Assembly: GCA_001786765.1 (NCBI GenBank)
Contig: MFTH01000010.1
Coordinates: 34,105-98,104 of the forward strand
DNA: 64,000 bases
Direction: 5' to 3'
Origin: Candidatus Nomurabacteria bacterium RIFCSPHIGHO2_01_FULL_37_25
Lineage (GTDB): Bacteria; Patescibacteriota; Minisyncoccia; Phycocordibacterales; UBA9973
Below the pieces are notes generated by a model. The model was not told the origin of the DNA and made no database searches. It worked only from the letters and a program-made list of their open reading frames with translations. The position numbers were made by a program, and so were the translations under genes. Positions 189 through 63,880 of this stretch are shown in pieces; within the stretch, counting starts at the first letter, position 1; the number at the start of each line of letters is the position of its first letter.

Positions 189-332
189 ATTTGCAAAAAA
201 ATTATCTTTTGTGTAATCCCATTAGATACTCTAATAAAAAATTTATATAATATTTTCCCCTATATTTTACTTTTATTTATATCTCTGATACATTCTTTGA
301 TGAGTATCTAACGGGACAGATACTTAATTTTT

Positions 333-18188: not shown

Positions 18189-19202
18189 CTACCTTTTATT
18201 TAAGAATGTTTTTTTGTACACATCCAAATGTTCGAGCGCTATGCCTGTGCCCTTAACTACGCAAAAAAGCGGATCCTCAGCCAAAGTCGCTTTCACCCCT
18301 ATTTTTTGATAAACCAAGTCAGTAATATTCCGCAAGAGAGATGACCCTCCAGTCATTATAATCCCTTGATCTATAATGTCCGATGCAAGTTCTGGCGGAG
18401 TTTCTTGCAACACATCTTTGATTGCTTTTATTATTTGTTTTAATTCTCCGTCTATCGCGCGCACTATTTCATTAGTTCCCACTCGCGCAGATCTAGGCAA
18501 CCCTTGAATGAAATCTCTGCCTTTTATGGTTACACTAAGTTCTTCCTCTAAAATTACAGCCGCGCCGATTTTTATTTTTACTTCTTCTGCTGTTCTGTCG
18601 CCTACTATTAAATTAAAAGTTTTTTTGATGTAATCAGCTATCGCTTGATCTATTTTATTCCCAGCGCATTTAACAGATGTAGAAGACACAATTCCACCGA
18701 GAGAGATAACTGCCACATCAGTTGTGCCCCCACCTATATCGACAACCATATGACCTTTTGATTCATAAATCGGAATACCAGCGCCAATGGCCGCCAATAT
18801 CGGCTCTTTTACCACATAAGCATTCTTTGCGCCTGCGCGTATTGTCGCTTCTATGACTGCTCTCCTTTCAGTAGAAGTAATACCGGCTGGAACCGAAACC
18901 ATCACATCCGGTTTTAAAAAATTAAACTGCCCCATCGCTTTATTTATAAAATAATACAACATCGCTTCTGTCACACGATAATCCGCAATGACGCCATCTT
19001 TCATCGGACAATAGACGATAATGGATTCTGGCGTTTTGCCAATCATGTCTTTAGCTTCAAAGCCAATAGCTAAAATCTTATTATCTTGTTCCGAAACTGC
19101 CACCACAGAAGGTTCATTTAAAACGATTCCCTTGCCGGGCAAAAGCACCAGAGTATTGGCTGTTCCTAAATCTATGCCTAATTTTTTTGTAAAAATACTC
19201 AT
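18189..19202 (-). CDS. mreB: Rod shape-determining protein MreB
   Basis: Actin-fold motifs GIDLGTANTLV, DIGGGTTD. Confidence 0.95.
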   Translation of the reverse strand: MSIFTKKLGIDLGTANTLVLLPGKGIVLNEPSVVAVSEQDNKILAIGFEAKDMIGKTPESIIVYCPMKDGVIADYRVTEAMLYYFINKAMGQFNFLKPDVMVSVPAGITSTERRAVIEATIRAGAKNAYVVKEPILAAIGAGIPIYESKGHMVVDIGGGTTDVAVISLGGIVSSTSVKCAGNKIDQAIADYIKKTFNLIVGDRTAEEVKIKIGAAVILEEELSVTIKGRDFIQGLPRSARVGTNEIVRAIDGELKQIIKAIKDVLQETPPELASDIIDQGIIMTGGSSLLRNITDLVYQKIGVKATLAEDPLFCVVKGTGIALEHLDVYKKTFLNKR

Positions 19203-19284
19203 CCCGTTAGAAGCAAGCCGCAGTCAAAAAACCACGACTAAACTCAATCATAGCTATTAAATTGCGACCACAGCTTCTAACGGG
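19203..19284 (-). promoter_or_regulatory. 5' leader inverted repeat CCCGTTAGAAG...CTTCTAACGGG enclosing ~60 nt, 3' arm abutting the mreB ATG
   Basis: 11-bp perfect inverted repeat; member of a family of five (see findings). Confidence 0.5.
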
Positions 19285-19326
19285 ACTCATAAAAGTAATA
19301 TATCATATATATGTTAAAATAAAAGT

Positions 19327-35712: not shown

Positions 35713-35860
35713 TTTGAATTACGAAACTCGTCGAAGGCATGTCTTTTTTAGGGGGTTTCGAGGCTGTCGAGCCGAGAACTTCAGGATTTTTTAAGCTTAA
35801 AAAAATCCGTACCCTAGAAAAAGACATGCCTAGAAAGAGTTTTGTAATTCATGATATACA
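35713..35860. mobile_element. MITE-like element copy 1 (~148 bp, 17-bp TIRs TTTGAATTACGAAACT / AGTTT[TC]GTAATTC[AA])
   Basis: TIRs flank a core with GGCTGTCGAGCCGAG and the perfect palindrome GGATTTTTTAAGCTTAAAAAAATCC. Confidence 0.75.
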
Positions 35861-35979: not shown

Positions 35980-36054
35980 TGGTGAGCGTGGATGGAATCG
36001 GACCATCGGCCTCTGTCTTATCAGGACAGCGTTCTACCACTGAACTACACGCTC
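35980..36054 (-). tRNA. tRNA-Ile(GAT) with atypical T-loop (TCCGATT), CCA encoded
   Basis: Reverse complement GAGCGTGTAGTTCAGTGGTAGAACGCTGTCCTGATAAGACAGAGGCCGATGGTCCGATTCCATCCACGCTCACCA; canonical cloverleaf but C at the usually invariant U55. Confidence 0.65.
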
Positions 36055-36122: not shown

Positions 36123-36147
36123 CTACACGCTCAAAACTTGTGAATTA

Positions 36148-36300
36148 CGAAACTCGTCGAAGGCATGTCTTTTTTAGGGGGTTTCGAGGCTGTCGAGCCG
36201 AGAACTTCAGGATTTTTCAACCTGCCTGCCGGCAGGCAGGGCTTCGAAAAATCCGTATCCTAGAAAAAGACATGCCTAGAAAGAGTTTCGTAATTCAAAG
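36148..36300. mobile_element. MITE-like element copy 2 with nested CCTGCCTGCCGGCAGGCAGGG palindrome replacing the central AAGCTT hairpin
   Basis: Same TIRs and core as copy 1; 36221-36241 carries the P1 palindrome. Confidence 0.75.
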
Positions 36301-39913: not shown

Positions 39914-40132
39914 TTATTTTTTTATTTTCGCAGTTGCGGCGCTACGTTTTTTAAATCTTTCCACACGTCCAGCGGTGTCTATGATTTTTTCATTACCAGT
40001 ATAAAAAGGGTGGCATTGACTACAAATTTCTATTTTTATTTCAGGCATAGTTGAACCAACTTCAAAAACCGCTCCGCAGGCGCAAGTGGCTTTAGTCTTT
40101 ATATCATATTTAGGGTGTATGTCTTTTTTCAT
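39914..40132 (-). CDS. rpmE: 50S ribosomal protein L31
   Basis: [10 protein letters not shown]-terminus, CxxC zinc motifs. Confidence 0.9.
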
Positions 40133-40252
40133 CCCGTTAGAGATAGGAAACCTTTGGATTTCCGTACATAAAATTATTTTTTATAAACCGAATCAACCAT
40201 TATTATTAAATATTTCTCCTTGACCCCATTAAACTAATTGATCTTTAACGGG
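40133..40252 (-). promoter_or_regulatory. 5' leader inverted repeat (CCCGTTAAAGA...TCTCTAACGGG-ATG) of rpmE
   Basis: 11-bp arms (one mismatch) enclosing ~100 nt; 3' arm abuts the start codon. Confidence 0.45.
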
Positions 40253-40281
40253 ATTCATTATCTAGAGAGATTATCATGATT

Positions 40282-42344: not shown

Positions 42345-42438
42345 AAAAATAGTATACAGAAAAAAAAGAAAAAAGCAACTTTATACGCTTAATAAATAAC
42401 TTTTATTTTAATTCTTATGTTATATTAATTAAGCTTGT

Positions 42439-42515
42439 CCCGTTAGAGATAACGGAATTAATGCTATGTTATATAATTAACTCACAAAAAAATATTTATG
42501 AAAATCTCTAACGGG
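42439..42515 (+). promoter_or_regulatory. 5' leader inverted repeat (CCCGTTAGAGAT...ATCTCTAACGGG-ATG) of rnr
   Basis: 12-bp perfect inverted repeat enclosing ~55 nt; 3' arm ends at the rnr ATG. Confidence 0.5.
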
Positions 42516-44564
42516 ATGAAAAAAAACCAAATAAAAAGACTCGAGGGTATCATGTCTATTTCCTCAAAAGGCGTTGGATATGTAAAAGTTCCAGAATTGA
42601 AAGAAGATATAGAAATTGATTCAAAATACTTGAATACTGCTATGCATGGAGATACTGTGGAAATCATTTTACATCCTAAAGAAAAAAGTCGCTCCGCTTA
42701 TGCCAAAGGCTACGGCGAGAGAAAACAAACAGCCGAAGTATCAAAAATAATTTCTCGTATTAAAACTTGTTTTGCCGGGGTTTTAGAATCGGAACCCTCT
42801 AAGTTTGGAACAAAAAATAATATTTATTTTTTGAAACCAGACGATACGAAAATGTACACAGATATTTTGATACCTGAAAGAGCGTTGCACGAAGCGAAAG
42901 CGGGGCAAAAAGTTTTTGTGGAAATAGTTTCATGGGAAAATGCAAACAAAGCGCCAGAGGGAAAAGTAATTAAAATTTTAGGTCAACCCGGAGATAATGA
43001 TACAGAAATGCATGCAATCGCCATGGAAAAAGGTTTTGATAGCGAATTTCCAAGAAAAGTGAAAGATGAGGCTAAAAATATCTCCGCCCACAATAAACAC
43101 GCGTCAGACAAAAAAGAAAATGATTATGCGGAACGACGCGATTTTAGAAAAATCTTAACTTTCACTATTGACCCAATAGACGCAAAAGACTTTGATGATG
43201 CAATTTCTTTCCAAGAATTAAAAAATAGCGAATACGAAATAGGTATTCATATCGCTGACGTTTCGCATTATGTAAAAGTCGGTAGCGCTCTTGATGATGA
43301 AGCGCGCCAGCGTGGAACTTCGGTGTATTTAGTAGATAGAACAATACCCATGCTCCCAGAAGAACTATCAAACGATTTATGCAGTTTAGTGCCAAATAAA
43401 GACAGACTCACAATGAGCGCAGTTTTTATAATAGACAAAAATGCCAAAATAAAAAGTGAGTGGTATGGACGCACTGTGATACATTCTCAAAAAAGATTTA
43501 CTTATGAAGAGGCTGGCGAGACAATCAAAAAAGCTAATGCTCCGCTCCATAAAGAATTATCAATCTTAAACAATCTGGCAAAAAAATTAACTTTAGATCG
43601 ATTTGCGCAGGGAGCAATATCTCTAGACCAAGAAGAAGTAAAATTTGTATTAGATCCTAAAGGAGTACCGATAAAAGTGGTGGTGAAAGAGCGTGGTGAT
43701 TCAAATAAGTTAATTGAGGAATTTATGCTTTTAGCTAATAAAAAAGTGGCTGAAGTATTATCTCCAAAATTATTTCAAGAGCGTCCTGATAAAAAAGCGG
43801 AAAAAGAAAATAGCGTATCTCTTTATCGCATACACGATTTACCCAGTAAAGAAAAAATGGCGGATTTGGCTTTTTTCTTACAAAGCTTGGGACACAAAGT
43901 AACTCTCCGAGATGGAATTATCCCCAGTTATGAGATAAATAATCTTCTGAAAAAATTAGCGGGGAAAAATGAAGAAAATACTGTGCAACGAGCAGTAGTG
44001 AGGTCTATGGCTAAAGCAATTTATTCCACTAAAAATATAGGACATTATGGGCTCGCATTTCCTTATTATACTCATTTTACTTCTCCAATTAGAAGATACC
44101 CAGACATTGTGGTGCATAGATTGCTCAATGATTATCTTGCAAAGAAAAAAGTTGGAAAAACCTCGCCCGACTCCCCCGTAAATATATGGCCAAAAGAAAA
44201 ATTGCTTGAATATGAAAAAATTGCCAGAATTTCATCCGAACAAGAAAAGCGCGCTTCTGACGCCGAAAGAATTTCAATAAAATACAAACAGGTTGAATAT
44301 ATGAGCAAACGTCTTGGAGAAAGTTTTGTGGGAGTGATAAGTGGCATAACAGAATGGGGTATTTATGTGGAAGAGATAGAAACCAAATGTGAAGGATTAG
44401 CGCGAGTGCGAGATATGAAAGACGACTTTTACATTTTTAATGAAAAAAAACTTGAATTGACTGGACAAAAAAACAAAAATAAATACCGTTTGGGTGATCG
44501 TGTTAAAATAAAAGTAAAGGGAGTTGATTTAGAAAGAAAAACAATAGACTATGTTTTGATATGA
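42516..44564 (+). CDS. rnr: Ribonuclease R (cold-shock, RNB and S1 domains)
   Basis: RNB catalytic motifs, C-terminal S1; ORF track begins at 42498, the second ATG at 42516 is more likely. Confidence 0.88.
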   Translation: MKKNQIKRLEGIMSISSKGVGYVKVPELKEDIEIDSKYLNTAMHGDTVEIILHPKEKSRSAYAKGYGERKQTAEVSKIISRIKTCFAGVLESEPSKFGTKNNIYFLKPDDTKMYTDILIPERALHEAKAGQKVFVEIVSWENANKAPEGKVIKILGQPGDNDTEMHAIAMEKGFDSEFPRKVKDEAKNISAHNKHASDKKENDYAERRDFRKILTFTIDPIDAKDFDDAISFQELKNSEYEIGIHIADVSHYVKVGSALDDEARQRGTSVYLVDRTIPMLPEELSNDLCSLVPNKDRLTMSAVFIIDKNAKIKSEWYGRTVIHSQKRFTYEEAGETIKKANAPLHKELSILNNLAKKLTLDRFAQGAISLDQEEVKFVLDPKGVPIKVVVKERGDSNKLIEEFMLLANKKVAEVLSPKLFQERPDKKAEKENSVSLYRIHDLPSKEKMADLAFFLQSLGHKVTLRDGIIPSYEINNLLKKLAGKNEENTVQRAVVRSMAKAIYSTKNIGHYGLAFPYYTHFTSPIRRYPDIVVHRLLNDYLAKKKVGKTSPDSPVNIWPKEKLLEYEKIARISSEQEKRASDAERISIKYKQVEYMSKRLGESFVGVISGITEWGIYVEEIETKCEGLARVRDMKDDFYIFNEKKLELTGQKNKNKYRLGDRVKIKVKGVDLERKTIDYVLI

Positions 44565-54047: not shown

Positions 54048-54190
54048 GTTTGAATTACGAAACTCTTACTTGGCATATCTTTTTCTAGGGTACAGATTTT
54101 TTGAAGCTTAAAAAATCTTGAAGTTTGCTCGCCGTCGCTCGCAAAACCCCCTAAAAAAGACATGCCTGCGACAAGTTTCGTAATTCAAAG
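54048..54190. mobile_element. MITE-like element copy 3 (opposite orientation, ~85% identity to copy 1), followed by a degenerate partial copy at ~54205-54275
   Basis: Same 17-bp TIRs TTTGAATTACGAAACT...AGTTTCGTAATTCAAAG and AAGCTT-centred internal hairpin. Confidence 0.75.
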
Positions 54191-54337
54191 TTAATTAGTA
54201 TAAATTCCAAAAAAACTCGTCGCAGGTGTAGTTTTTGGTAGACATTGCGCAGGCTGACGAGCCGAGCATAGCAAATTTTCAGCAGAAAATTATGCGTGTC
54301 TAACAAAAATTATACCGAGAAAGAGTTTTTTTGGAAT

Positions 54338-55249
54338 TTACAAACTTAAAGCCATTTTTGATTTCCAAAAAAAGAAAGCAATTATGAACATTGTCATAAG
54401 CGGAGATAAATATTCTGGAATATGAAAATCAAAACTATGCAATATCATAATAATACCTAGCACCAATATAGAATACATCGCGCCATTTTTTAAATAAACA
54501 TATTTTTTAATTCGTTCTATATTGCTGATGGTGACCTGTCGCACCAATAACGCGCCAAAACCATTTCCAATTAAAATCAAAGGCACAGAGAGAGTAAAAG
54601 CAAAAGCGCCGAGCACTCCGTCAATAGAAAAAGTGGTATCAATTATTTCTAAAAAGAAAAGTTTGCTCAAATCCGAATGCGCGCTACCAAGCAATTTCCT
54701 TTCCTGTTCTTCGGCATTTTGTTTGAAACCATGAGTAATAAAAAATAAACTTGAGCCGACGACAGCTCCAAAGCCCATTATGTTACTCTCTTTGAGCGCA
54801 AACCAAGAAATAATTGCAAGTAAAACAGAAACTACAGCATAAAACCAAACTCCTTTTGACATGAAAAATTTCTCTGTCCTCGGTAAACCAAGCTTTTTAT
54901 CTTCTAGAAACAGCCAATGTAAAAATAAAAACAAAAGAAAAACTCCGCCAGCGACGAGCAAAATTGGCGCGGATTTTTCTATGGATTCCAGAACCACAGG
55001 GTCAGAAGACCAAGCCGCTGAAAAAATCTGCATTGGGCTAAGACTTGTGTTAAAAGCCCAAATTATAGCAAAAGGTAAAAGCCCACGAACTAAAAATACC
55101 GCAATAAACATTCCCCAAGTTAGAAACCACCTCCGAGCGCGAGAGCCCATGGTGGAGAGCACCTCGGCATTTATAATAGCATTATCCACAGACGAAACTG
55201 CTTCAAAAAGCGAGAGACCAATGATAGTAATAAGGGCGGAAAATAGCAT
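54338..55249 (-). CDS. TerC/DUF475-family integral membrane protein
   Basis: SVDNAIINA motif, ~8 TM helices. Confidence 0.65.
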   Translation of the reverse strand: MLFSALITIIGLSLFEAVSSVDNAIINAEVLSTMGSRARRWFLTWGMFIAVFLVRGLLPFAIIWAFNTSLSPMQIFSAAWSSDPVVLESIEKSAPILLVAGGVFLLFLFLHWLFLEDKKLGLPRTEKFFMSKGVWFYAVVSVLLAIISWFALKESNIMGFGAVVGSSLFFITHGFKQNAEEQERKLLGSAHSDLSKLFFLEIIDTTFSIDGVLGAFAFTLSVPLILIGNGFGALLVRQVTISNIERIKKYVYLKNGAMYSILVLGIIMILHSFDFHIPEYLSPLMTMFIIAFFFWKSKMALSL

Positions 55250-55952: not shown

Positions 55953-56672
55953 ATGGAAACCAAGAAAAGACGGCGGAATCCCTGGGGCCCAGTTTTAAAA
56001 AATCCAAAGGCAACACAGGACACTGCAGTTGGGACTGCAGTTCCACCGCCACAGAAGAAACAAAAGATGGTGGAATGGCTGGTGGGGGGGATATTTATTT
56101 TTCTGGTCCTGGTATGCGGATTCTACTTTGAGTTCGCGTACCGAGTCCTGGCTGTAGTTGGGCTCGGGATCACCATGGCTGTACTCATGGTACAGTCTAT
56201 CTTCTCCGAGAAAGAGGTGAGTTTTTGGACCACCTTGGGAAAGGTTGTTGGAAACAACAACTGGATTTACTGGTGGATCTTCTTGTCTGGGATGGCTTGT
56301 CTCCTGATAGGATTTTTCTCAAACAACATTCCGAGAAAAATCTATACGGTGCTTGTCATAATAGACAATCCTGTAAGTCCCGGTAATTGGAGTAAGGCCG
56401 CAGAGAGTCTTACTCTAGAGGACCCTTTTAAAAACAACGACGACAACCCCTTCCTCGCAACAAACGAAGGAACTCAAGGCAGTTCCCTCTTCGCAGGAGA
56501 GGAGGCGAAATGGGGTTTCGCCGGTCTTCAATTCCTCTTGCTGGCTCTGCCAGCAAGGTTCGTCTCTTACTGGGACGAAATGAAGAGGAAGGCGAAAAAA
56601 AAGGAGAAGGGCCAGAGCTGGATTAGCTGGTTCTTCAGCCACGTCCTCTTTGAATTAATCTGGCCTGGGTAG
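55953..56672 (+). CDS. Hypothetical polytopic membrane protein (GC-rich island)
   Basis: GC-rich ORF with SD AAGGGAGAAGGAA before the ATG; several TM helices. Confidence 0.5.
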   Translation: METKKRRRNPWGPVLKNPKATQDTAVGTAVPPPQKKQKMVEWLVGGIFIFLVLVCGFYFEFAYRVLAVVGLGITMAVLMVQSIFSEKEVSFWTTLGKVVGNNNWIYWWIFLSGMACLLIGFFSNNIPRKIYTVLVIIDNPVSPGNWSKAAESLTLEDPFKNNDDNPFLATNEGTQGSSLFAGEEAKWGFAGLQFLLLALPARFVSYWDEMKRKAKKKEKGQSWISWFFSHVLFELIWPG

Positions 56673-56693
56673 GTAATAGAGGAGACCAAAAAT

Positions 56694-57206
56694 ATGCCGA
56701 GAATCTTCATAATGTTGGTGGTGTTGGTGCTTTCAATTTACTCTTTTGGATGCGGGGGGGAGAATAAGTATGAAAAGACCATAAGTTCTGCTGAAAAGCA
56801 GGACAGGGATAGCCCCCCTGCAAATTATGAAGAGGCGCAAAAACGCTTCAACCAAGTAGCCAAGTATCTTGACTACTTGGAGAAGCATCCGGAGAGTTCT
56901 TCCCCAGAACTCACAGCAAGGGCAAAGGCCCTGCTGGATAGCCGTAAAGCGGCGGCTATGGCTAAAGGATGGAATGTCGCCGCCGGAGCGCTAGAGAAGG
57001 TAGTGCAAAAGGCGAAGGAAGTGGCGAAGGAAGTGCTGGGCACCATTGGCGTCACAGACCTACCCAGCGCTGCCAAAAAGGTCGAGGAGGCAAGAGATTG
57101 GGTCCTTAGGGACCCGGAAAGAGAAGAACAGTTCTCCTGCAAGGATATCGACGGTAACCCCGTCGACGTCACGAAGGAAGGTTTTGCCCATCTCTGCGTA
57201 AGGTAG
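56694..57206 (+). CDS. Hypothetical lipoprotein (GC-rich island)
   Basis: Signal peptide with lipobox-like ...YSFGC, helical body. Confidence 0.5.
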   Translation: MPRIFIMLVVLVLSIYSFGCGGENKYEKTISSAEKQDRDSPPANYEEAQKRFNQVAKYLDYLEKHPESSSPELTARAKALLDSRKAAAMAKGWNVAAGALEKVVQKAKEVAKEVLGTIGVTDLPSAAKKVEEARDWVLRDPEREEQFSCKDIDGNPVDVTKEGFAHLCVR

Positions 57207-57264
57207 AAAGGAGGAAAAAACTTACGCAGGTGGGGAGGGTGCGCGACCCTATAACGCGCAAATT

Positions 57265-57298
57265 GGGCGGACTCAGAAATGAGTACCGCCCTTTTTTT
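57265..57298 (+). terminator. Rho-independent terminator
   Basis: GGGCGGactcagaaatgagtaCCGCCC plus TTTTTTT. Confidence 0.75.
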
Positions 57299-57350
57299 AT
57301 TTTAATATTATAAAATAAGGATAAAATAGCTTTTTTGTCAAGATTAAACC

Positions 57351-57556
57351 TTGACTTTTTCATTTTATTGTGCTATACTATAAAGGTAATCAGGTCTTTG
57401 AAAATATAATATGTTCTGAGTCATTCTTGAGCAGTTTGCCTATCAAGTAGCTAAAGAGATTTGGCTCTTTGCTTGGCAAACGAGCTCAAGGAATGGAAAC
57501 TTCTCTGGTGAAAGCCAGAGTACAAATGCGTCATCTTGACGCGAAAGGAGTCCACA
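57351..57556 (+). promoter_or_regulatory. Promoter (TTGACT-17-TATACT) plus ~170-nt structured leader, copy 2
   Basis: See copy 1; the ORF-track ORF 57469-57702 lies inside the leader and is probably not coding. Confidence 0.65.
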
Positions 57557-58654
57557 ATGTGGACATTGATTATTTTATTAGCGGCCAGTTACTGGGCATC
57601 CACTGGGATACCCGGGTGGCCGTTGTCAACATGGCAGACGTCCCTGGTGGCGGGAGCCCTATATGGGCTCTATCGACTGGCGTGCTGGATGCAGTGGATT
57701 GATGGTGGCCATCATACCACCACACCAGTTAGCACCGCCGCCGGACACAGTGGAGGAAGTGGTGGTATGTGGGGAGGGATACCAAAGCTAGGACTTTGGT
57801 ACGTTCTCACAACCGCCCTAATGATGATAGGTACATACATAGTCAACGTGCAAAACGTTGACATGTTTATGTATTTCATAACATTAGGGGGACGGTCGTG
57901 GATTTATCCTTTATCCACAACGGATGCTATCCTCTGGACGTCTACCCTGGCTCTCATGTCAGCGGTCGCCTGGCTAGCAGTGGAGGGGAGATGGCGACCG
58001 GCTGGATGGATATTCGGGATAACCTTTATAACTCTCCTTGTTTTTAGGGAGTTCGGTCCGTTCTTCGAGGCGATCCGGCCGATCCCGAGCTCCGGTCCTG
58101 TCACGCCGGGCATCGGCGAAAGTCAAGAGAGGGCGGACCTGAACGCCGCCCTAGTCAAGCGAGGAGCGCTCCCCGTAGCGGGGGAGGTGGTGGCCAAGTT
58201 TGGGTTCGGGGAGGTAGACCCAAAGGAAGGTTTCCTCCTCGGCCTGGTTTCCCGAGGGTGGGTGTGGTGGATGGGCGCACCCACCTACGACCCCAAGAAG
58301 GGGGCAGTCCTGGGGAGATTGTATCAGTTTTGGGAATGGGCGGCTGGAGAAAGCCCACTCCCATCTCGCGCGCCGGCGGTAGTGTTTTCCCCCACCCCTG
58401 CGCCGGCGGGACCGCTGAGAAGCTGTTCCGTCCCCTGCGAGATGTGGGTGGATTGGGAGGAGGACATCAAAACGGGTGGGCGAGACGTTTTGGTCCTCTT
58501 CCACGGAAAGGAGGAATGGTTCCGCCTTTCCGGAGGGAATGAAAAGGATATCCCCAGGGAGGTTTTCTCCCCCGGCAAGGCAAAGTTTGCTTTGCCGGAC
58601 GACGGCGACGACGCGTCGCCCATAATGGTAAAAATTTTCGCGGCGAAAAAATAA
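57557..58654 (+). CDS. Hypothetical polytopic membrane protein with Pro/Gly-rich C-terminal region (GC-rich island)
   Basis: ATG at 57557 preceded by AAAGGAG; ~8 TM helices; ORF-track start 57536 is a TTG upstream. Confidence 0.5.
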   Translation: MWTLIILLAASYWASTGIPGWPLSTWQTSLVAGALYGLYRLACWMQWIDGGHHTTTPVSTAAGHSGGSGGMWGGIPKLGLWYVLTTALMMIGTYIVNVQNVDMFMYFITLGGRSWIYPLSTTDAILWTSTLALMSAVAWLAVEGRWRPAGWIFGITFITLLVFREFGPFFEAIRPIPSSGPVTPGIGESQERADLNAALVKRGALPVAGEVVAKFGFGEVDPKEGFLLGLVSRGWVWWMGAPTYDPKKGAVLGRLYQFWEWAAGESPLPSRAPAVVFSPTPAPAGPLRSCSVPCEMWVDWEEDIKTGGRDVLVLFHGKEEWFRLSGGNEKDIPREVFSPGKAKFALPDDGDDASPIMVKIFAAKK

Positions 58655-58783: not shown

Positions 58784-59107
58784 TTATGGATAATCAGGTA
58801 AATCTACTATCCCTTGTTCAGGATCTATCCCTTCTATGTTTGGGAAGGTGCTCAATATAACTCCAAGAATAGTCCAGACACCCATCATGATAGTCAATCC
58901 GACAACACCCCAAAGCATATGGCTCTTCCCGGTTGTCTTTTTCTCGTCATTACTCTGATTGTTAATGAATTGAAACATACCGAAAAGAAAATACGCCAAC
59001 GCTAAAGCGAAGAGCAACAGAATAAGCGGGTTTATAATTTCTCTATTAACATTCGCTATAAAACTATTCACGCTCGCATAAGCTATCTTTGTTTCAAATA
59101 AATCCAT
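58784..59107 (-). CDS. TrbC/VirB2-like pilin-family small membrane protein (paralog 1, no signal peptide)
   Basis: Two TM helices separated by a short charged loop; shares its core with the four downstream paralogs. Confidence 0.5.
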   Translation of the reverse strand: MDLFETKIAYASVNSFIANVNREIINPLILLLFALALAYFLFGMFQFINNQSNDEKKTTGKSHMLWGVVGLTIMMGVWTILGVILSTFPNIEGIDPEQGIVDLPDYP

Positions 59108-59118
59108 TGATTCTAAAA

Positions 59119-59511
59119 CTAGAAAGGAGTGGTTGGAAAAGTGATAGTTTGAGGATTTGTATCAATTCCAAAAGTGTTTGTTAGAATCTTTACGAGTCCC
59201 CATACGGTAACAATAACAGCCAAGCCAATTATGCCAAATATTATTCTGTCTCGTCCTTTCTTTTTTGCTTCTGCATCATCTCCAATAACATAAGAAATTA
59301 CTCCCCATACAAAGTAAATGACCCCTAAGATAATTATAATAGGAACAATTTGAGTAAAAAGTTGAGCTATCTTACATAAGATAGCTTCAATTGTGCCTGT
59401 ACCCACACTAGCACAATTAGTAGAAGTACCCCCCGTCGTCACCTGCGCCAATGCCATAACAGGCGCTAGACCTAAAACAAAACCCGACAAAACAATTAAT
59501 TTCTTTTTCAT
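59119..59511 (-). CDS. TrbC/VirB2-like pilin-family protein (paralog 2, with signal peptide)
   Basis: Signal peptide, then IIILGVIYFVWGVISYVIGDDAEAKKKGRDRIIFGIIGLAVIVTVWGLV core. Confidence 0.55.
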   Translation of the reverse strand: MKKKLIVLSGFVLGLAPVMALAQVTTGGTSTNCASVGTGTIEAILCKIAQLFTQIVPIIIILGVIYFVWGVISYVIGDDAEAKKKGRDRIIFGIIGLAVIVTVWGLVKILTNTFGIDTNPQTITFPTTPF

Positions 59512-59622
59512 CCCGTTTAGAAATTATGATATCCGTACATTACCTTTAGGTATATAAAGAAACACAATTCTTACTTTTATAATTTCTCCCGTTTTCTAAA
59601 TTTCTAACGGGATTCAAAACGA
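59512..59622 (-). promoter_or_regulatory. 5' leader inverted repeat (CCCGTTAGAAATT...AATTTCTAAACGGG-ATG) of pilin paralog 2
   Basis: 13/14-bp arms enclosing ~80 nt; 3' arm abuts the ATG. Confidence 0.45.
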
Positions 59623-59726
59623 CTTTGATAATAATTAATAATACTTAATAAAGAACTACCATGCTATTGTACCACAAACAGTATCAAAAAAGAAAGCAAG
59701 CCCCGTCTGAATAAAGACGCTGAAAG

Positions 59727-60302
59727 TTATGGGGGTGGTGTCTTAACTTGTGGAATAAAACTAGTGTTAATCCCAAAGGTAGTACCTAGTATTTCAACCA
59801 ACCCCCAAACGGAAACCATCACCGTCAAAGCAATCAACCCCCAAAGCATAAATTGCTTGCCTTTTTGCTTTTTCGCCTCTTCGTCGCTTTTGATAACATA
59901 CTGCACCACACCCCAGACAAACATCACCATCGCTAAAGCGAAAATAAGAGGAATGATAGCGTTGTTAATAATGGTGGTGATATAACACACAAGGTCTTGA
60001 AATCTCGGATAGGGACCAAGAGTTTGGCAAGTGTCTATGGGCTCAAAGACGGGCCCAGTTGCATTTGTAAGCCCGAAAGTTTCAGCAATAATGCTTACAA
60101 GTCCCCATACAGACACAATAACAGTCAAGCCAATGATGCCATATATTATTCTATCTCTCCCTTTCTTTTTTGCTTCATCACCGCCCCCTATAACATACTG
60201 CACCACGCCCCAGACAAAATAGACCACTCCTAAAGCAACCAAAACAGGAATGATTGAACTAAGAATATTATACGCCTCAAATATTAAATCCTCTATGGTC
60301 AT
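59727..60302 (-). CDS. Tandem-duplicated TrbC/VirB2-like pilin-family protein (two complete core modules in one ORF)
   Basis: Two copies of ...LGVVYFVWGVVQYVIGGGDEAKKKGRDRIIYGIIGLTVIVSVWGLV... / ...LAMVMFVWGVVQYVIKSDEEAKKQKGKQFMLWGLIALTVMVSVWGLV... Confidence 0.55.
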   Translation of the reverse strand: MTIEDLIFEAYNILSSIIPVLVALGVVYFVWGVVQYVIGGGDEAKKKGRDRIIYGIIGLTVIVSVWGLVSIIAETFGLTNATGPVFEPIDTCQTLGPYPRFQDLVCYITTIINNAIIPLIFALAMVMFVWGVVQYVIKSDEEAKKQKGKQFMLWGLIALTVMVSVWGLVEILGTTFGINTSFIPQVKTPPP

Positions 60303-60320
60303 GATTTTAATTCTTAAATT

Positions 60321-60731
60321 TTACGGTCCAAGCTCGGTAACGGTAGCTGATATGAGTTCTGCGATAGCCCACGACCCTAAGAGTATCGCCGCGCCGATCA
60401 AAGTATATAAGAGAGCGTTTTTAGCTTTAGTTAATTTTTCTGAATTGCCCATCGCTGATACAAAAAGAAAACCGCAATAAATGACAGCCAGAGCGACAAT
60501 GGGAATGCCTATTTTTAGCACACCTTCTAAAAGAACCTTGATAAATTCCTGAATGGTATTTGTGCTTATTGGGTTGCAAATTTTATCTTTACAAAGGTCA
60601 GAAGGAGTAGTACCCTGAATAGGTTCAGGAGAAGTAGTCTCTGCAAAAGAAAGAGCTGGCGCCGTAATCAAAAAAGCCATTAAAATTATTCGAAATAAAT
60701 TTTTAGTCAGATTTTTCTTAAAAAAATTCAT
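60321..60731 (-). CDS. TrbC/VirB2-like pilin-family protein (paralog 4; likely start MNFFKKNL)
   Basis: Signal peptide, core IPIVALAVIYCGFLFVSAMGNSEKLTKAKNALLYTLIGAAILLGSWAIAELI. Confidence 0.5.
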   Translation of the reverse strand: MNFFKKNLTKNLFRIILMAFLITAPALSFAETTSPEPIQGTTPSDLCKDKICNPISTNTIQEFIKVLLEGVLKIGIPIVALAVIYCGFLFVSAMGNSEKLTKAKNALLYTLIGAAILLGSWAIAELISATVTELGP

Positions 60732-60759
60732 ATTTAGATTACTTATATTATACATCATT

Positions 60760-61170
60760 TCAAAAAAATCTATCAATATCCTTATAACCTAAAATTGATA
60801 GTAAGGTTTTAACAATAAGCCAAGCGGCGGCGGCAAGGACAAGCCCGATAACGGCATTAGTAAAAATATTCTTTGCTTTTCCCCTAGCTTCTGTACTACC
60901 GCCAGAAGTTACGAGTTTAAAACCAGCGTAAAAGAACATTATGGCGGCGATAGGTATAGCCATATAGAAAAGAATAAAATCAATAATATTGTTTATAAGC
61001 TTCATAAAAGCGGTGAAATTGCATGGCTCCGCAATTGTTCCACTATCATCTGGAGTATTATTGCAAGGAACCAACCCTTTTAATGGATCAAAAGCGGCAA
61101 AAGAAATAACAGGCGCCACAAGCATTAAAAACACAGCGAGGGAAATAAAAAATTTTGTTGTTTTTGTCAT
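60760..61170 (-). CDS. TrbC/VirB2-like pilin-family protein (paralog 5)
   Basis: Signal peptide, core IPIAAIMFFYAGFKLVTSGGSTEARGKAKNIFTNAVIGLVLAAAAWLIV. Confidence 0.5.
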   Translation of the reverse strand: MTKTTKFFISLAVFLMLVAPVISFAAFDPLKGLVPCNNTPDDSGTIAEPCNFTAFMKLINNIIDFILFYMAIPIAAIMFFYAGFKLVTSGGSTEARGKAKNIFTNAVIGLVLAAAAWLIVKTLLSILGYKDIDRFF

Positions 61171-61217: not shown

Positions 61218-62516
61218 TTATCTTAATAATAACAACCCCAACTTGGAGCTTGCGTCAGAAATCGCATTTTCAACGGTCAGATTATTTGAGAGCACTTTAT
61301 CAATCATATTGCGAAAAATGTTGTCTGTGTCTGCGGGTGACGGGTCAAGCCAGCTCCTCGCATAAAGCGCTGAATCATAAAAAATTGAAGAATAGCTATC
61401 AGTCGGCTTCACCTTGAGTAAATCTCGGCGCGCTGGCGCCGTCCCGGTGGCTAAAGCGAACTTGGAAGCAAAATCCCCGGCAGACAAGAGTCCAGCCGCT
61501 GTAAAAGCAGTGTTGAAGTTCTTCGAAGAAGAGAGTATTGCTATCCCTGTTACATTAGCGCCAGTTAACTTAAAAGTAGAATCTTTTATTTGAGGCATTG
61601 GAGCAACTCCAAAATTTTGATTTGGATTTTTATTTACCAAAGACGCAAGCTCGCTCGCAAATCCAAAATAAAATATTAAATCTTCTCTTGAAAATACATT
61701 ATTAGAATTCGAAAATGACCTATTCCAAGAATATACGTCTTTATTTGGGTCAGCGAAATCCGTATAGAATTTTAAAATTTCGCTAAGATTATATTTTGGA
61801 TTAGCTGAAAGGGCGCTCAAACTAGAATTAAAAATTCCATTTTTCTCCAAAACGATTTTATTTCCTGCCTGCATAAAAAGAGTAGTTAAAATAGTTTTGG
61901 CATTAATAACATTTGAAAAATGTCCAAACGCAATCGCGCTTTTTATTATTTTATTTGAATCATCTTTTTTAGTAAGTTTCAGCGCAAGGCTAGTCAAATC
62001 ATCCCAAAAAGCCGGAGGATACACTACCCCATCCGCATCAAGAAGACTTCGATTATAATACATCATAAGAGGGTCAATAGATAAGGGAAAAGCTAGAACA
62101 CCTTTGGAGGTCAAAAATACTTCCCCTGCGCCGGCAAAATTATTCTTAAATGAAGCAAGTGGATAACTAGCATATGGAATGGAAATAATTCTATCAATAT
62201 AATGAAGGGCTAAATTGTCCGGCAAGAGAAACATATCAGGCCCAGAACCCGATGCTAAAGCTTCAAGTAAATCTTGGTCAAAACTTTCCGCTCTTTTTTG
62301 CGTATATTTCACAATAAAAGTAGGATTAGCTTTATTAAATTCCTCGAGAAGTGGAGACATGATATTGTCACCTACCGTTCCCCATAAGACAACAGTGCCG
62401 AGAACTCCCGGTTTGTTTTGCTCTCCAATTGGTATCGCGCCAGAAAAAACTAAAACACCAAAAATAGCTAAGACGATGAAAACAATTGTTATTATAAGTT
62501 GAAAATTTTCTTTCAT
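61218..62516 (-). CDS. ABC transporter substrate-binding protein (family 1, sugar-type)
   Basis: N-terminal TM/signal, SBP_bac_1-like fold motifs. Confidence 0.75.
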   Translation of the reverse strand: MKENFQLIITIVFIVLAIFGVLVFSGAIPIGEQNKPGVLGTVVLWGTVGDNIMSPLLEEFNKANPTFIVKYTQKRAESFDQDLLEALASGSGPDMFLLPDNLALHYIDRIISIPYASYPLASFKNNFAGAGEVFLTSKGVLAFPLSIDPLMMYYNRSLLDADGVVYPPAFWDDLTSLALKLTKKDDSNKIIKSAIAFGHFSNVINAKTILTTLFMQAGNKIVLEKNGIFNSSLSALSANPKYNLSEILKFYTDFADPNKDVYSWNRSFSNSNNVFSREDLIFYFGFASELASLVNKNPNQNFGVAPMPQIKDSTFKLTGANVTGIAILSSSKNFNTAFTAAGLLSAGDFASKFALATGTAPARRDLLKVKPTDSYSSIFYDSALYARSWLDPSPADTDNIFRNMIDKVLSNNLTVENAISDASSKLGLLLLR

Positions 62517-62634
62517 CCCGTACGAAATAGGACGCGTACGCTTGCACTACAGTTGTCCTTTTTATTATTTATAATATATTTAATCGGTTTCATAATTTTG
62601 TTTACTTTCATGCGTCCGCGATTTCGTTCGGGAT

Positions 62635-63150
62635 TCATTTCTTTATAAATATCATACCATAATGATGCTCGCCGGCGTTAATATCTCTATCAAAAACAAA
62701 ACCTTTTTTTTCAAACATTTCACGAGCTTTATTTTTTGGAATAATGGTTGTTGCATTCATAATTTGAGACTGCGACCAATCAATCAACAATACTCGCCCA
62801 TTTTGTTTTAATATTCTTTTTATTTCTTCGATGAACACCTCTTTGTTTTCCACTTGGAAAAGAACGTTGGAAGCAATAACCGCATCTACGATACTATTAC
62901 CTATTTTTGTTCCTTCAATTTTTTCAACATCACCCCAGAGAATTTCTACATTATTTAAACGGGCTTCTGTTATTTTGTTTTTTATTGTGTTCAAAAAATC
63001 TTTATTTATCTCAACAGCATAGACTTTTCCTTGAGGTACCATCGCCCCCGCGGCGACAGAGTAAAAACCAGTTCCTGCGCCCAAATCCGCCACAATGTTA
63101 TTTTCCTTTAGTCCAAAAGCTTTTAAATTTTTTATTGGATCGGTGAACAT
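62635..63150 (-). CDS. Class I SAM-dependent methyltransferase
   Basis: Motif I DLGAGTGFYS, small Rossmann MTase. Confidence 0.75.
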   Translation of the reverse strand: MFTDPIKNLKAFGLKENNIVADLGAGTGFYSVAAGAMVPQGKVYAVEINKDFLNTIKNKITEARLNNVEILWGDVEKIEGTKIGNSIVDAVIASNVLFQVENKEVFIEEIKRILKQNGRVLLIDWSQSQIMNATTIIPKNKAREMFEKKGFVFDRDINAGEHHYGMIFIKK

Positions 63151-63212
63151 CTATACATTATAGTATTAAAAAACTTAATTTGCATTGAAGTTATTAACAA
63201 AAAACCTTGATG

Positions 63213-63880
63213 TCAAAGAGACACTTTGACATAATACAGTGAATGAGTAATAGAGATTATAAAAAATTTAATATTGGATCAATAGCTCACATTTACAACA
63301 GAGGAAATAACAAGGAAAAAATATTTTTTGATGATCAAGATTACAGAGCTTTTCTTTTTAGACTTGCTTTAGTTTTAGGATTTGACCAAAAAGAATTACA
63401 AAACGAAAACTTGTTAAGTATGCCTTATTCCAGAATACGAATTGAATTTAAAGGAAAAAATAAATTCAAAATACATGCTTTTTGTCTTATGCCAAATCAT
63501 TTTCATTTATTAATTGAGCAAGTTGGAGATACCTCAATTTCAAAATTAATTTCAAAAGTCTGTTCAAGTTATTCTAAATATATAAATAAAAAATATAAAC
63601 GTGTTGGACATACTTTTCAAGATTGTTTTAAAGCTGTAATTATTGAGAATAATCCTCAACTAATGTGGGTTTCGTCTTATATCCACATGAATGCAGTAAA
63701 AGATGGTTTGGTAAAACACCCTTCTGAATATTTATGGAGTAGTTACAACGATTACACTTCCCTCAGAAATTTACCGTTAGTTACAAAAGAATTATTAATA
63801 GAAACTTTTGGCGATGAGAAAAATTTTATAGAACAAACATTGAATTTTAGTGTCAAAGTGTCTCTTTGACACCCTTACCT
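63213..63880 (+). mobile_element. IS200/IS605-type element carrying a RAYT-like Y1 transposase, flanked by complementary hairpins
   Basis: Left hairpin TGTCAAAGagacacTTTGACA (63215-63235); right GTGTCAAAGtgtctcTTTGACAC (63855-63877), the reverse complement of the left. Confidence 0.7.
63243..63869 (+). CDS. tnpA: IS200-like / REP-associated tyrosine transposase (HuH Y1)
   Basis: HuH motif LMPNHFHLL, catalytic Tyr region (WSSYNDY), ~200-aa RAYT-length form. Confidence 0.78.
   Translation: MSNRDYKKFNIGSIAHIYNRGNNKEKIFFDDQDYRAFLFRLALVLGFDQKELQNENLLSMPYSRIRIEFKGKNKFKIHAFCLMPNHFHLLIEQVGDTSISKLISKVCSSYSKYINKKYKRVGHTFQDCFKAVIIENNPQLMWVSSYIHMNAVKDGLVKHPSEYLWSSYNDYTSLRNLPLVTKELLIETFGDEKNFIEQTLNFSVKVSL

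Follow-up and report, generated by a model that had tools for sequence, protein, structure and literature searches.

Inverted repeats at start codons of a Candidatus Nomurabacteria genome as probable termini of a miniature transposable element

In a 64,000-nt stretch of the genome of Candidatus Nomurabacteria bacterium RIFCSPHIGHO2_01_FULL_37_25 (contig MFTH01000010.1, positions 34,105 to 98,104 of the forward strand; hereafter the window), an inverted repeat of the form TCCCGTTAGA…TCTAACGGGA occurs in six copies, where about 0.3 would be expected by chance. Very probably the motif pair marks both ends of a MITE (miniature inverted-repeat transposable element), a non-coding, non-autonomous element of 60-170 bp that forms a hairpin. 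The arms are best seen as transposon ends, and the hairpin that they form in the mRNA as a by-product that the host must live with. A first-pass annotation of the window had left the matter between a shared translational control element and a small MITE providing promoter and start context. The second of these readings is borne out by orthologous sites of which some are empty and others filled, by the duplication of 4 bp of target sequence, by sub-families that precede unrelated genes in many phyla and by nested, tandem and decayed copies. A translational control element as the primary identity, on the other hand, finds no support in the arbitrary set of downstream genes, in orthologues that are mostly empty, in the large share of cross-phylum copies away from start codons or in the few mismatches observed in the stem, all of which are set out below.

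Element anatomy and target-site duplication

The four sites at which the motif had been placed, those of mreB, rpmE, rnr and a T4SS-pilin paralogue, all exist at the coordinates given for them, and each has an inverted partner: the 5' arm, CCCGTTAGA, is followed after 55-110 nt by TCTAACGGG, the 3' arm, which in gene orientation runs into the ATG without a gap (Table 1). The initial tally of four copies and one variant nonetheless fell short of the six that the window holds. The 'compact variant' described upstream of topA at 304-323 is actually the 3' arm of a full element (copy 1), and a further copy, with the variant arms CCCGAACGA/TCGTACGGG (also given as CCCGAACGAAAT / ATTTCGTACGGG), stands at the start of an SBP_bac_1 gene (copy 6). 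When inverted repeats of the form CCC[GA]...[CT]GGG were sought with a minimum of 10 paired positions out of 12, five gapless copies were retrieved, against 0.32 in shuffled sequence; the bulged pilin copy comes on top of these. The exact 9-mers TCTAACGGG (n = 7, 0.24 expected) and ACGGGATG (n = 5, 0.65 expected) are likewise in excess. The interiors of the window copies do not align with one another, and the description of the enclosed sequence as AT-rich fails for the mreB copy, the interior of which is a near-perfect long hairpin.

Across the copies compared, the element is laid out as 5'-T-CCCGTTAGA-nnn ... nnn-TCTAACGGG-A-3', with a median length of 76 bp (range 36-169), no coding capacity for a transposase and an interior that is not conserved among copies. 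Its terminal inverted repeats, TCCCGTTAGAnnn / nnnTCTAACGGGA, form a perfect stem with a sharp mode at 12 bp (104 of 184 copies). Arm positions 10-12 present 29 different triplets and yet are fully complementary in 151 of the 184 copies. Co-variation of the arms had been noted before, and the arm extensions do co-vary. Within stem positions 1-12, the mRNA strand shows 13 G.U and 14 A.C pairs. The ratio, drawn from only 27 such pairs, carries no RNA-specific signature, as would be expected if complementarity were preserved in the DNA, either by way of a hairpin intermediate or because one arm corrects the other.

If T-CCCG...CGGG-A is taken as the extent of the element, 109 of 183 copies lie between exact direct repeats of 4 nt, where 14 would be expected, and a 6-nt repeat fits just 36. 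To the left, the flanking hexamer has the form A-T-n-n-A/G-T, and to the right A-T-n-n-A-N; repetition beyond that due to composition is confined to the inner positions, and the outer ones match independently of each other. The duplicated tetranucleotide follows the consensus TNNA/YNNR and is mostly TGAA (52 copies), with TTGA and TAAA (14 each), TGGA (11) and TGAG (7) behind it; in about one third of the copies it is missing. Two other interpretations of these flanks were discarded. A 6-bp duplication or a tyrosine-recombinase core site (9-6-9) is at odds with outer two hexamer positions that match only at the level of composition and with target flanks devoid of arm-like sequence. An IS608-type 'guide' model is at odds with a single sub-family (AGC) that carries several different duplications (TGAG, TGGG and TGAA). 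When the insertion falls on a start codon, A-TGNN-N becomes A-TGNN-[T...A]-TGNN-N; the last base of the element and the duplicate therefore rebuild the ATG together with two further bases, the first ones of codon 2. The ORF (open reading frame) remains intact. It is in this sense that the element provides start context, as had been suggested.

Within the window, the duplication is present in copies 2, 3, 5 and 6 (TGAG, TGAA, TGAA and TGAA, respectively) and absent from copies 1 and 4. At mreB (copy 2), the terminal A (19202) is the A of the rebuilt ATG (19202-19200), and the old ATG lies 6 nt after a -10 box, GATATATT; the upstream ORF (uORF) that opens there stops at a UAA (19209-19207) located in the 3' arm, 4 nt before the rebuilt ATG. 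At rpmE (copy 3), where the rebuilt and old ATGs occupy 40132-40130 and 40258-40256, the arms contain a single A.C mismatch and the uORF ends after 9 codons. The uORF of copy 6 ends at a UGA (62515-62513) that overlaps the rebuilt ATG (AUGA overlap). The pilin copy (copy 5) has a one-base bulge in its gene-proximal (3') arm and is preceded by the hexamer TTGAAT, so that no old ATG is found there. In copy 4, the terminal A (42516) is the A of the rnr ATG, a further in-frame ATG occurs inside the element at 42498, and the unmatched flanks CTTG (42434-42437) and TGAA (42517-42520) include what we term a 'class 2' flank (GCTTGT). Copy 1, flanked by GTAA (213-216) and CAGA (317-320), does not adjoin the topA ATG, which lies 17 nt beyond the 3' arm. 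In predicted RNA folds the arm stem closes in all five window copies tested (z -2.3 to -7.9), and the mreB copy reaches -46.8 kcal/mol (z -7.9).

Table 1. Copies of the element in the window, with the genes, target-site duplications and upstream reading frames associated with them
Feature	Position	Strand	Remarks
Copy 1, upstream of topA (ATG at 333)	217..316	+	arms TCCCATTAGATACTC 217-231, GAGTATCTAACGGGA 302-316
mreB	18189-19202	-	3' arm abuts ATG
Copy 2, mreB start	19202..19285	-	arms 19203-19214, 19273-19284
Copy 2, downstream copy of the duplication (TGAG in sense)	19198..19201	-	empty sites have a single copy
Copy 2, upstream copy of the duplication	19286..19289	-	with 19290 makes the old ATG (19290-19288)
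mreB old-ATG uORF, 27 codons (MSPVRSCGRNLIAMIEFSRGFLTAACF)	19207..19290	-	open across the whole element
rpmE (L31)	39914-40132	-	3' arm abuts ATG
Copy 3, rpmE (L31) start	40132..40253	-	duplication TGAA; + strand TTCA 40128-40131, 40254-40257
Copy 4, rnr (RNase R) start	42438..42516	+	arms 42439-42450, 42504-42515
rnr (RNase R)	42516-44564	+	3' arm abuts ATG
T4SS-pilin paralogue	59119-59511	-	3' arm abuts ATG
Copy 5, T4SS-pilin paralogue start	59511..59612	-	duplication TGAA; + strand TTCA 59507-59510, 59613-59616
Copy 6, SBP_bac_1 gene (61218-62516) start	62516..62633	-	duplication TGAA; + strand TTCA 62512-62515, 62634-62637
Copy 6 old-ATG uORF, 41 codons (old ATG 62638-62636)	62513..62638	-	open across the whole element

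Orthologous sites, start codons and translation

The comparison of orthologous sites in related Nomurabacteria/Paceibacteria was centered on mreB, for which 80 metagenomic loci encoding MreB at 82-93% identity were collected, 79 of them with usable upstream sequence (loci are numbered here with the prefix L). About 70 of the 79 are empty and read ...TTGATTTTAGCACAAATATGATATATT-ACTTTT-ATGGGTATTTTT, that is, an extended -10 box (again GATATATT), 6 nt and the ATG. The filled site of the window reads ATGAGT[CCCG...82 nt...CGGG]ATGAGTATTTTT, and those of L151 and L158 read ATGGGT[...]ATGGG(A/T)ATTTTT. An automated flank-to-flank comparison extended this result to several independent sites, at which the overlap between flanks is almost always 6 nt (T + 4 bp + A); empty counterparts were identified for mreB, for its divergent neighbour (L135, L167), for an frr-like gene (L172, L181), for a pair of paralogues (L103) and for others. 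The rnr gene is empty and leaderless in L210 and L211, where TGCTATATT is followed by 6 nt and ATG or GTG, and filled in the window, L212 and L066. In L209 it appears as a deletion derivative in which only 'ATGAAAATCTCTAACGGG-ATG' is left and the 3' arm is joined to the promoter. The class 2 flanks (ACTTGT, ACCTGT, GCTTGT and ACGTGT), which stand in place of the duplicated start codon, fall at the exact position of the leaderless ATG in empty orthologues with a homologous promoter, and their terminal UGU could pair with the AUG by wobble.

Some of these loci deserve separate mention. In five mreB loci counted as empty (L130, L132, L150, L143 and L160), the nucleotides that separate the -10 box from the ATG read AACGGG, GACGGG or GACGGA, which corresponds to the last bases of the 3' arm; judging from the sequence, these spacers are probably the footprint of a deleted copy, with the leaderless spacing restored, and the partial deletion in L209 is the analogous case at rnr. 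In the public annotation, RNase R (688 aa) begins at 42498, inside the element, and thereby gains an additional MKISNG encoded by the 3' arm; gene callers disagree between this start and 42516. In L209, the ATG equivalent to 42498 has become a leaderless start after loss of most of the element, so that either ATG may be the true start of rnr in the window. Finally, three related genomes are filled at the same gene start, ATGCAAT... (L170 3113-3230, L172 4835-4910 and L181 4747-4822), with arm triplets GAT and AAT, a TTAGA core against a fully compensated TACGA core, lengths of 118 nt and, in two of them, 76 nt, and a duplication of 5 bp (TGCAA). The site may be either an insertion hot spot or an old copy with compensated evolution of its arms.

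The gene-proximal arms at rpmE (40132) and rnr (42516) are identical over 13 nt (ATCTCTAACGGGA, then TGAAAAAA) and face one another at a distance of 2385 bp, with two genes between them, and could thus be a substrate for inversion. No sign of an inversion between these two copies was detected in the comparison of orthologues, and such an event was dismissed as the source of the unusual flank at rnr, since empty and filled orthologues have homologous rnr promoters.

The distribution of the element is broad. A scan of one genome per species for the exact pattern CCCGTTAGA-N45-75-TCTAACGGGAT matched at least 120 stretches in species-representative genomes. Among the matches listed, most belong to Patescibacteria of many classes (Saccharibacteria, Nomura-, Kerfeld-, Yanofsky-, Kaiser-, Levyi-, Doudna- and Moranbacteria, among others) and some to long contigs binned as Omnitrophota, Planctomycetota, WOR-3 and Nitrospirae; viral contigs contributed just four matches. 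Because it is so widespread in ultra-small groundwater bacteria, we regard it as a jumping element rather than a dedicated regulatory switch. The genes downstream are unrelated, encoding DnaA, Ndk, RsmD, YidD, RuvC, SMC, LexA, HPF, L4, L13, aminoacyl-tRNA synthetases and membrane proteins. Sub-families can be recognized by shared inner ends (AGAAGCCRCGGTCGC...GCGACCTGCTTCT; ...UACGGAAAUCnnnnGAUUUCCUAU-UCUAACGGG; a GC-rich 69-nt type), and within one sub-family the gene that follows changes from genome to genome. Nested, tandem and minimal copies are found as well. A mobile family would behave in this manner, and a leader evolving with its gene would not; in particular, the notion of an AGAAGCCRCGGTCGC sub-type serving as mreB leader and an UACGGAAAUC...GAUUUCCUAU sub-type serving as L31 leader was abandoned because the genes downstream of each differ. 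Rfam at its gathering threshold recovers only three tRNAs in the window, and at E<=1 nothing on the element in nine loci with GC-rich copies; a literature search returned nothing relevant on the element. One Parcubacteria contig with two copies also contains a group I intron match (RF00028, 57.8 bits; L024 3154-3454).

The element shows a pronounced preference for start codons. In the listed loci, 84 of 149 copies directly adjoin an ATG from which an ORF of 50 codons or more extends, as compared with 1.2% of random positions, and the strongly prevailing position is the one right after the A of the start codon. The same holds for all eight copies in a motif-independent sample of 450 kb around mreB orthologues. 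Nevertheless, 44% of the cross-phylum copies are not at a start codon. One class of GC-rich copies sits upstream of -35 boxes, where duplication of TTGA (ATTGAT[...]ATTGACA) likewise regenerates the functional hexamer. The window has 94 intergenic TGAA sites and 20 at gene starts, and random insertion followed by loss of genic insertions would therefore place about 18% of copies at starts. The preference may arise either because the machinery targets gene starts or because only such insertions survive. The absence of GGAGG upstream of the motif-bearing genes, although real, is not distinctive, because the genome is largely leaderless: a Shine-Dalgarno (SD)-like sequence precedes just six of 65 window genes, and 32 of the 65 have the leaderless arrangement, in which a -10-like hexamer precedes the ATG by 4-9 nt (mostly 6-8).

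The reading frames of copies at start codons suggest that these may be translated. In the frame that the old ATG sets, the 5' arm is invariably read as CCC GUU AGA (Pro-Val-Arg), which is stop-free, and this frame is open through the interior in 32 of 66 copies, as opposed to 5 of 132 for the other two frames and about 21% for shuffled interiors. Open frames end with UAA-N4-ATG in 20 cases (6.5 expected), with an AUGA overlap in five (2.4 expected) and with an in-frame fusion in six. Since the uORF peptides are unrelated beyond MxPVR, it is the openness of the frame and not its product that is conserved. In 23 of 65 copies the old ATG has a -10 box 5-8 nt upstream, against 6% of random ATGs and 25% of gene starts generally. 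Inside the element, a partial 3' arm (nCGGG) able to pair with the 5' arm is found 43 times against four occurrences of CCCG in the opposite sense, and an SD-like sequence lies just 5' of TCTAACGGG in 12 of 82 copies, against two at the mirror position. These two asymmetries agree in that selection acts in the direction of the gene. By contrast, -10-like hexamers within the element have no strand bias (65 sense, 81 antisense), so that an internal promoter is not indicated and the part of the earlier suggestion in which the MITE supplied one is not supported.

The picture that emerges suggests expression by termination-reinitiation. The old ATG and its promoter or SD sequence remain 5' of the inserted element, and the transcript would start at or near the old AUG and include both arms, the 12-14 bp stem of which can pair with the A and U of the rebuilt AUG. 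It had been proposed that the hairpin occludes the start region; in a transcript with both arms, the stem would indeed pair the A and U of the start codon, and an effect on translation is likely, as a consequence of insertion, because copies show signs of selection for translation through the hairpin. Ribosomes would begin at the old AUG, translate through the element and melt the hairpin. They would then terminate at the UAA located 4 nt upstream of the rebuilt AUG or at the overlapping UGA, stops that the 3' arm would supply in two of its three frames, and reinitiate at the rebuilt AUG, such coupling being the presumed main route of expression. In the third frame, ribosomes would read straight into the gene. 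The internal partial copy of the 3' arm may serve to hold the 5' arm occupied.

A bolder proposal, which we put forward tentatively, is that these copies constitute a previously undescribed cross-phylum family that homes to start codons. Its insertion machinery would be directed at the very beginning of genes, perhaps at the part of a leaderless promoter that is melted or where initiation takes place, and its ends would let the host gene survive, through a terminal A that rebuilds the ATG, a stop-free 5' arm in the frame fixed by the duplication and a 3' arm that provides UAA or UGA at the new ATG. Leaderless genes would in this way become uORF-coupled and hairpin-gated, and the element may have been co-opted as a general mobile leader in the genome-reduced Patescibacteria.

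Objections and alternative explanations

A number of results weigh against the interpretation of the motif pair as MITE termini and against the expression route proposed for it. No autonomous partner or transposase was found in the 1.4 Mb of fetched loci; no transposase lies between any long-range pair of arms there, and the ORFs that neighbour solo arms belong to housekeeping genes. The interiors of copies from the same genome are unrelated, which is not typical of a MITE family active in the recent past. Across phyla the terminal 10 nt are kept, and three more arm positions change without loss of complementarity. A plain DDE transposase acting on terminal inverted repeats (TIRs) does not account for this combination, which suggests that a hairpin occurs as an intermediate or is itself under selection. 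About one third of the copies at start codons, that of rnr included, lack the duplication and have instead the recurrent flank RCYTG+T. Lastly, since half of the old-ATG uORFs stop early, coupling is not the sole route of expression.

The most obvious alternative to a transposable element is a dedicated cis-regulatory RNA, in which a conserved hairpin of the 5' untranslated region, selected by the host at many genes, sequesters the start codons of a regulon as a protein- or temperature-controlled operator. Such a device would account for the closing of the arm stem at the AUG in all tested folds, for the gene-relative polarity of the interior (in the third arm, the SD-like sequence and the open frame), for an rnr copy kept at both ends in three species and for class 2 flanks ending in UGU, able to wobble-pair with the AUG. 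We nevertheless consider it unlikely: the element is absent from most mreB and rnr orthologues, the downstream genes have nothing in common, the target-site duplication marks insertion events, the cross-phylum copies away from start codons include some upstream of -35 boxes, G.U does not outnumber A.C in the stem and there is no Rfam match even at E<=1. The variable but complementary arm positions, which speak of a hairpin and thus of a single-stranded DNA (ssDNA) intermediate, together with strand-symmetric mismatches and long-lived vertical inheritance, would also fit a REPIN-like element, that is, two inverted REPs (repetitive extragenic palindromes) mobilised via ssDNA by a Y1 transposase of the RAYT (REP-associated tyrosine transposase) type, and the window does encode a RAYT-like protein (63243-63869). 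This gene, however, is flanked by another palindrome, TGTCAAAGnGnCnCTTTGACA, with only two occurrences in the window, its product scores below the NCBIfam family cut-off of 80, and the individual arms of our element are not palindromes. Moreover, Y1/HUH transposition (IS200/IS605) is not known to produce a target-site duplication and proceeds by insertion 3' of a fixed tetra- or pentanucleotide, whereas the duplication seen here is of 4 bp and variable in sequence. A REPIN-like origin is for these reasons rather improbable.

Explanations in which the arms act as sites on DNA fare worse. Inverted repeats around a short AT-rich segment with -10-like hexamers, located directly upstream of genes, are reminiscent of an inverton, the segment of which is flipped by a recombinase to switch the downstream gene, and a single repeat core at many loci would fit one master invertase. 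We give this very little credence, given that the interior has the same orientation in four independent mreB assemblies and in three rnr species, that the segments measure only 40-100 bp, that housekeeping genes such as mreB, rpmE, topA and dnaA are unlikely to be phase-variable, that duplications and empty sites would not be expected and that the annotated parts of the window contain no invertase gene. Identical half-sites with promoter-like DNA between them might also be paired operators, through which a transcription factor loops the promoter. The centre-to-centre distances (68, 73, 89, 91 and 111 bp) are without helical phasing, though, arm positions 10-12 vary and remain complementary, which a DNA-binding protein does not need, and an insertion polymorphism with target-site duplication has no place in this scheme, which we find scarcely credible. 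Integron attC sites, which on the strand have the order RYYYAAC ... GTTRRRY and lie at the 3' end of cassettes, were rejected as well, because the core order here is reversed (GTTAGA ... TCTAAC) and the location is 5' of housekeeping genes. A MITE-type element thus remains our preferred identification.

Other possible mobile DNA, significance and known systems

The window and the related loci harbor other sequences with traits of mobile DNA. The RAYT-like gene mentioned above (+ strand) is present in single copy and encodes a 208-aa Y1 (IS200-like) transposase (Pfam Y1_Tnp, 1.4e-13) whose best match is the NCBIfam REP-associated tyrosine transposase family (REP_Tyr_transpos, 68 bits). The palindrome that flanks it, at 63211-63231 and 63851-63871, occurs nowhere else in the window, and gene and palindromes together have the appearance of a RAYT accompanied by REPs of its own, with no relation to the CCCGTTAGA element. 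The members of a second MITE-like family measure 137-157 bp and have terminal inverted repeats of about 34 bp (TGAATTACGAAACTCGTCGAAGGCATGTCTTTTT...); the family is represented at 35715-35851, 36141-36297 and 54051-54187, and a related inverted repeat at 54201-54340; two of its copies bracket tRNA-Ile (35980-36054) and one lies between thrS and a TerC gene. A third hairpin element, CCCCCACACCTATTT...AAATAGGTGTSGGGG, is found within the mreB -10 box of relatives (gatata[...]tatatt), some 40-110 nt upstream of mreB, in eleven loci (L138, L140, L146, L152, L161, L164, L165, L176, L177, L182 and L184). It apparently duplicates TATA(T), so that the -10 box is regenerated, and is thus a further small element seated on a signal for expression. 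Finally, the block 55953-58654, with a GC content of 0.45-0.48 against about 0.35 elsewhere, is likely foreign DNA. Two of its three ORFs (55953-56672 and 56694-57206) have SD-like sequences, none of the three has a recorded Pfam match, and the block adjoins five tandem T4SS_pilin paralogues (58784-61170).

If our identification of the motif pair holds, the element would represent mobile DNA that prefers the start codon itself and stays there because its ends suit translation. It would also explain a recurrent motif that, in genomes of Patescibacteria, could be taken for a signal of ribosome binding or regulation. In annotation, copies would mark true start codons and reveal short upstream ORFs, and they would constitute a natural experiment on how leaderless genes tolerate conversion to leadered ones. 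A family common to Patescibacteria, Omnitrophota and Planctomycetota would, in addition, imply horizontal traffic of a transposition system among uncultured groundwater lineages.

The element has the defining features of MITEs apart from a cognate insertion sequence, which was not found in the 1.4 Mb of loci. Its closest parallel in general organization may be drawn with the Correia elements (CREE/NEMIS) of Neisseria, which are likewise small and non-coding, have terminal inverted repeats and a short duplication, lie in many copies near genes, show presence/absence polymorphism among strains and, when co-transcribed, form mRNA hairpins that can alter expression. Correia elements, however, occur in a single genus, their TIRs measure 26 bp, their duplication is TA and their interior is conserved. 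The present element combines a 10-nt conserved terminus and three variable but paired nucleotides with a TNNA duplication, unrelated interiors, a cross-phylum distribution and near-exclusive residence at start codons with rebuilding of the ATG. The 4-bp TNNA duplication, the unrelated interiors, the breadth across phyla and the start-codon residence set it apart from RUP or ERIC-type elements as well. REPINs and their RAYTs are similar in that spaced inverted repeats give one long hairpin, in compensatory complementarity, in long vertical persistence and in the RAYT-like gene of the window, but each REP is a palindrome with a conserved 5' tetranucleotide, REPs are extragenic and produce no duplication, and the RAYT is flanked by REPs of its own.

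Regarding the ends themselves, there may be a resemblance to those of piggyBac/IS1380, which would share CCC...GGG termini, a terminal repeat with a length of about 13 bp and duplication of a 4-bp T..A target, TTAA in the case of piggyBac; the piggyBac TIR, CCCTAGAAAGATA, would resemble the CCCGTTAGAAAGAT of some copies. Here, on the contrary, there is an extra T/A outside the CCC/GGG, the center of the target is free (TNNA) and no such transposase was found near any copy. With the Rickettsia palindromic elements (RPE) the family shares the condition of palindromic mobile elements tolerated within gene boundaries with a usable frame kept. RPE, in contrast, are inserted in frame within coding sequence and translated into the protein, whereas this element sits at the start codon, and the upstream frame ends at the rebuilt ATG in 25 of 31 open frames and is fused in the remaining six. 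The arrangement also resembles translational coupling (UAAnnnnAUG or AUGA), in that the upstream frame stops 4 nt before the main AUG or overlaps it, and leaderless initiation, in that in leaderless contexts the transcript is predicted to begin with the upstream AUG. As read from the sequences, it would have been created here in one step by a mobile element and not by the evolution of an operon. The unusual parts are the specificity for start codons, the geometry by which the ATG is rebuilt and the evidence for translation through the element.

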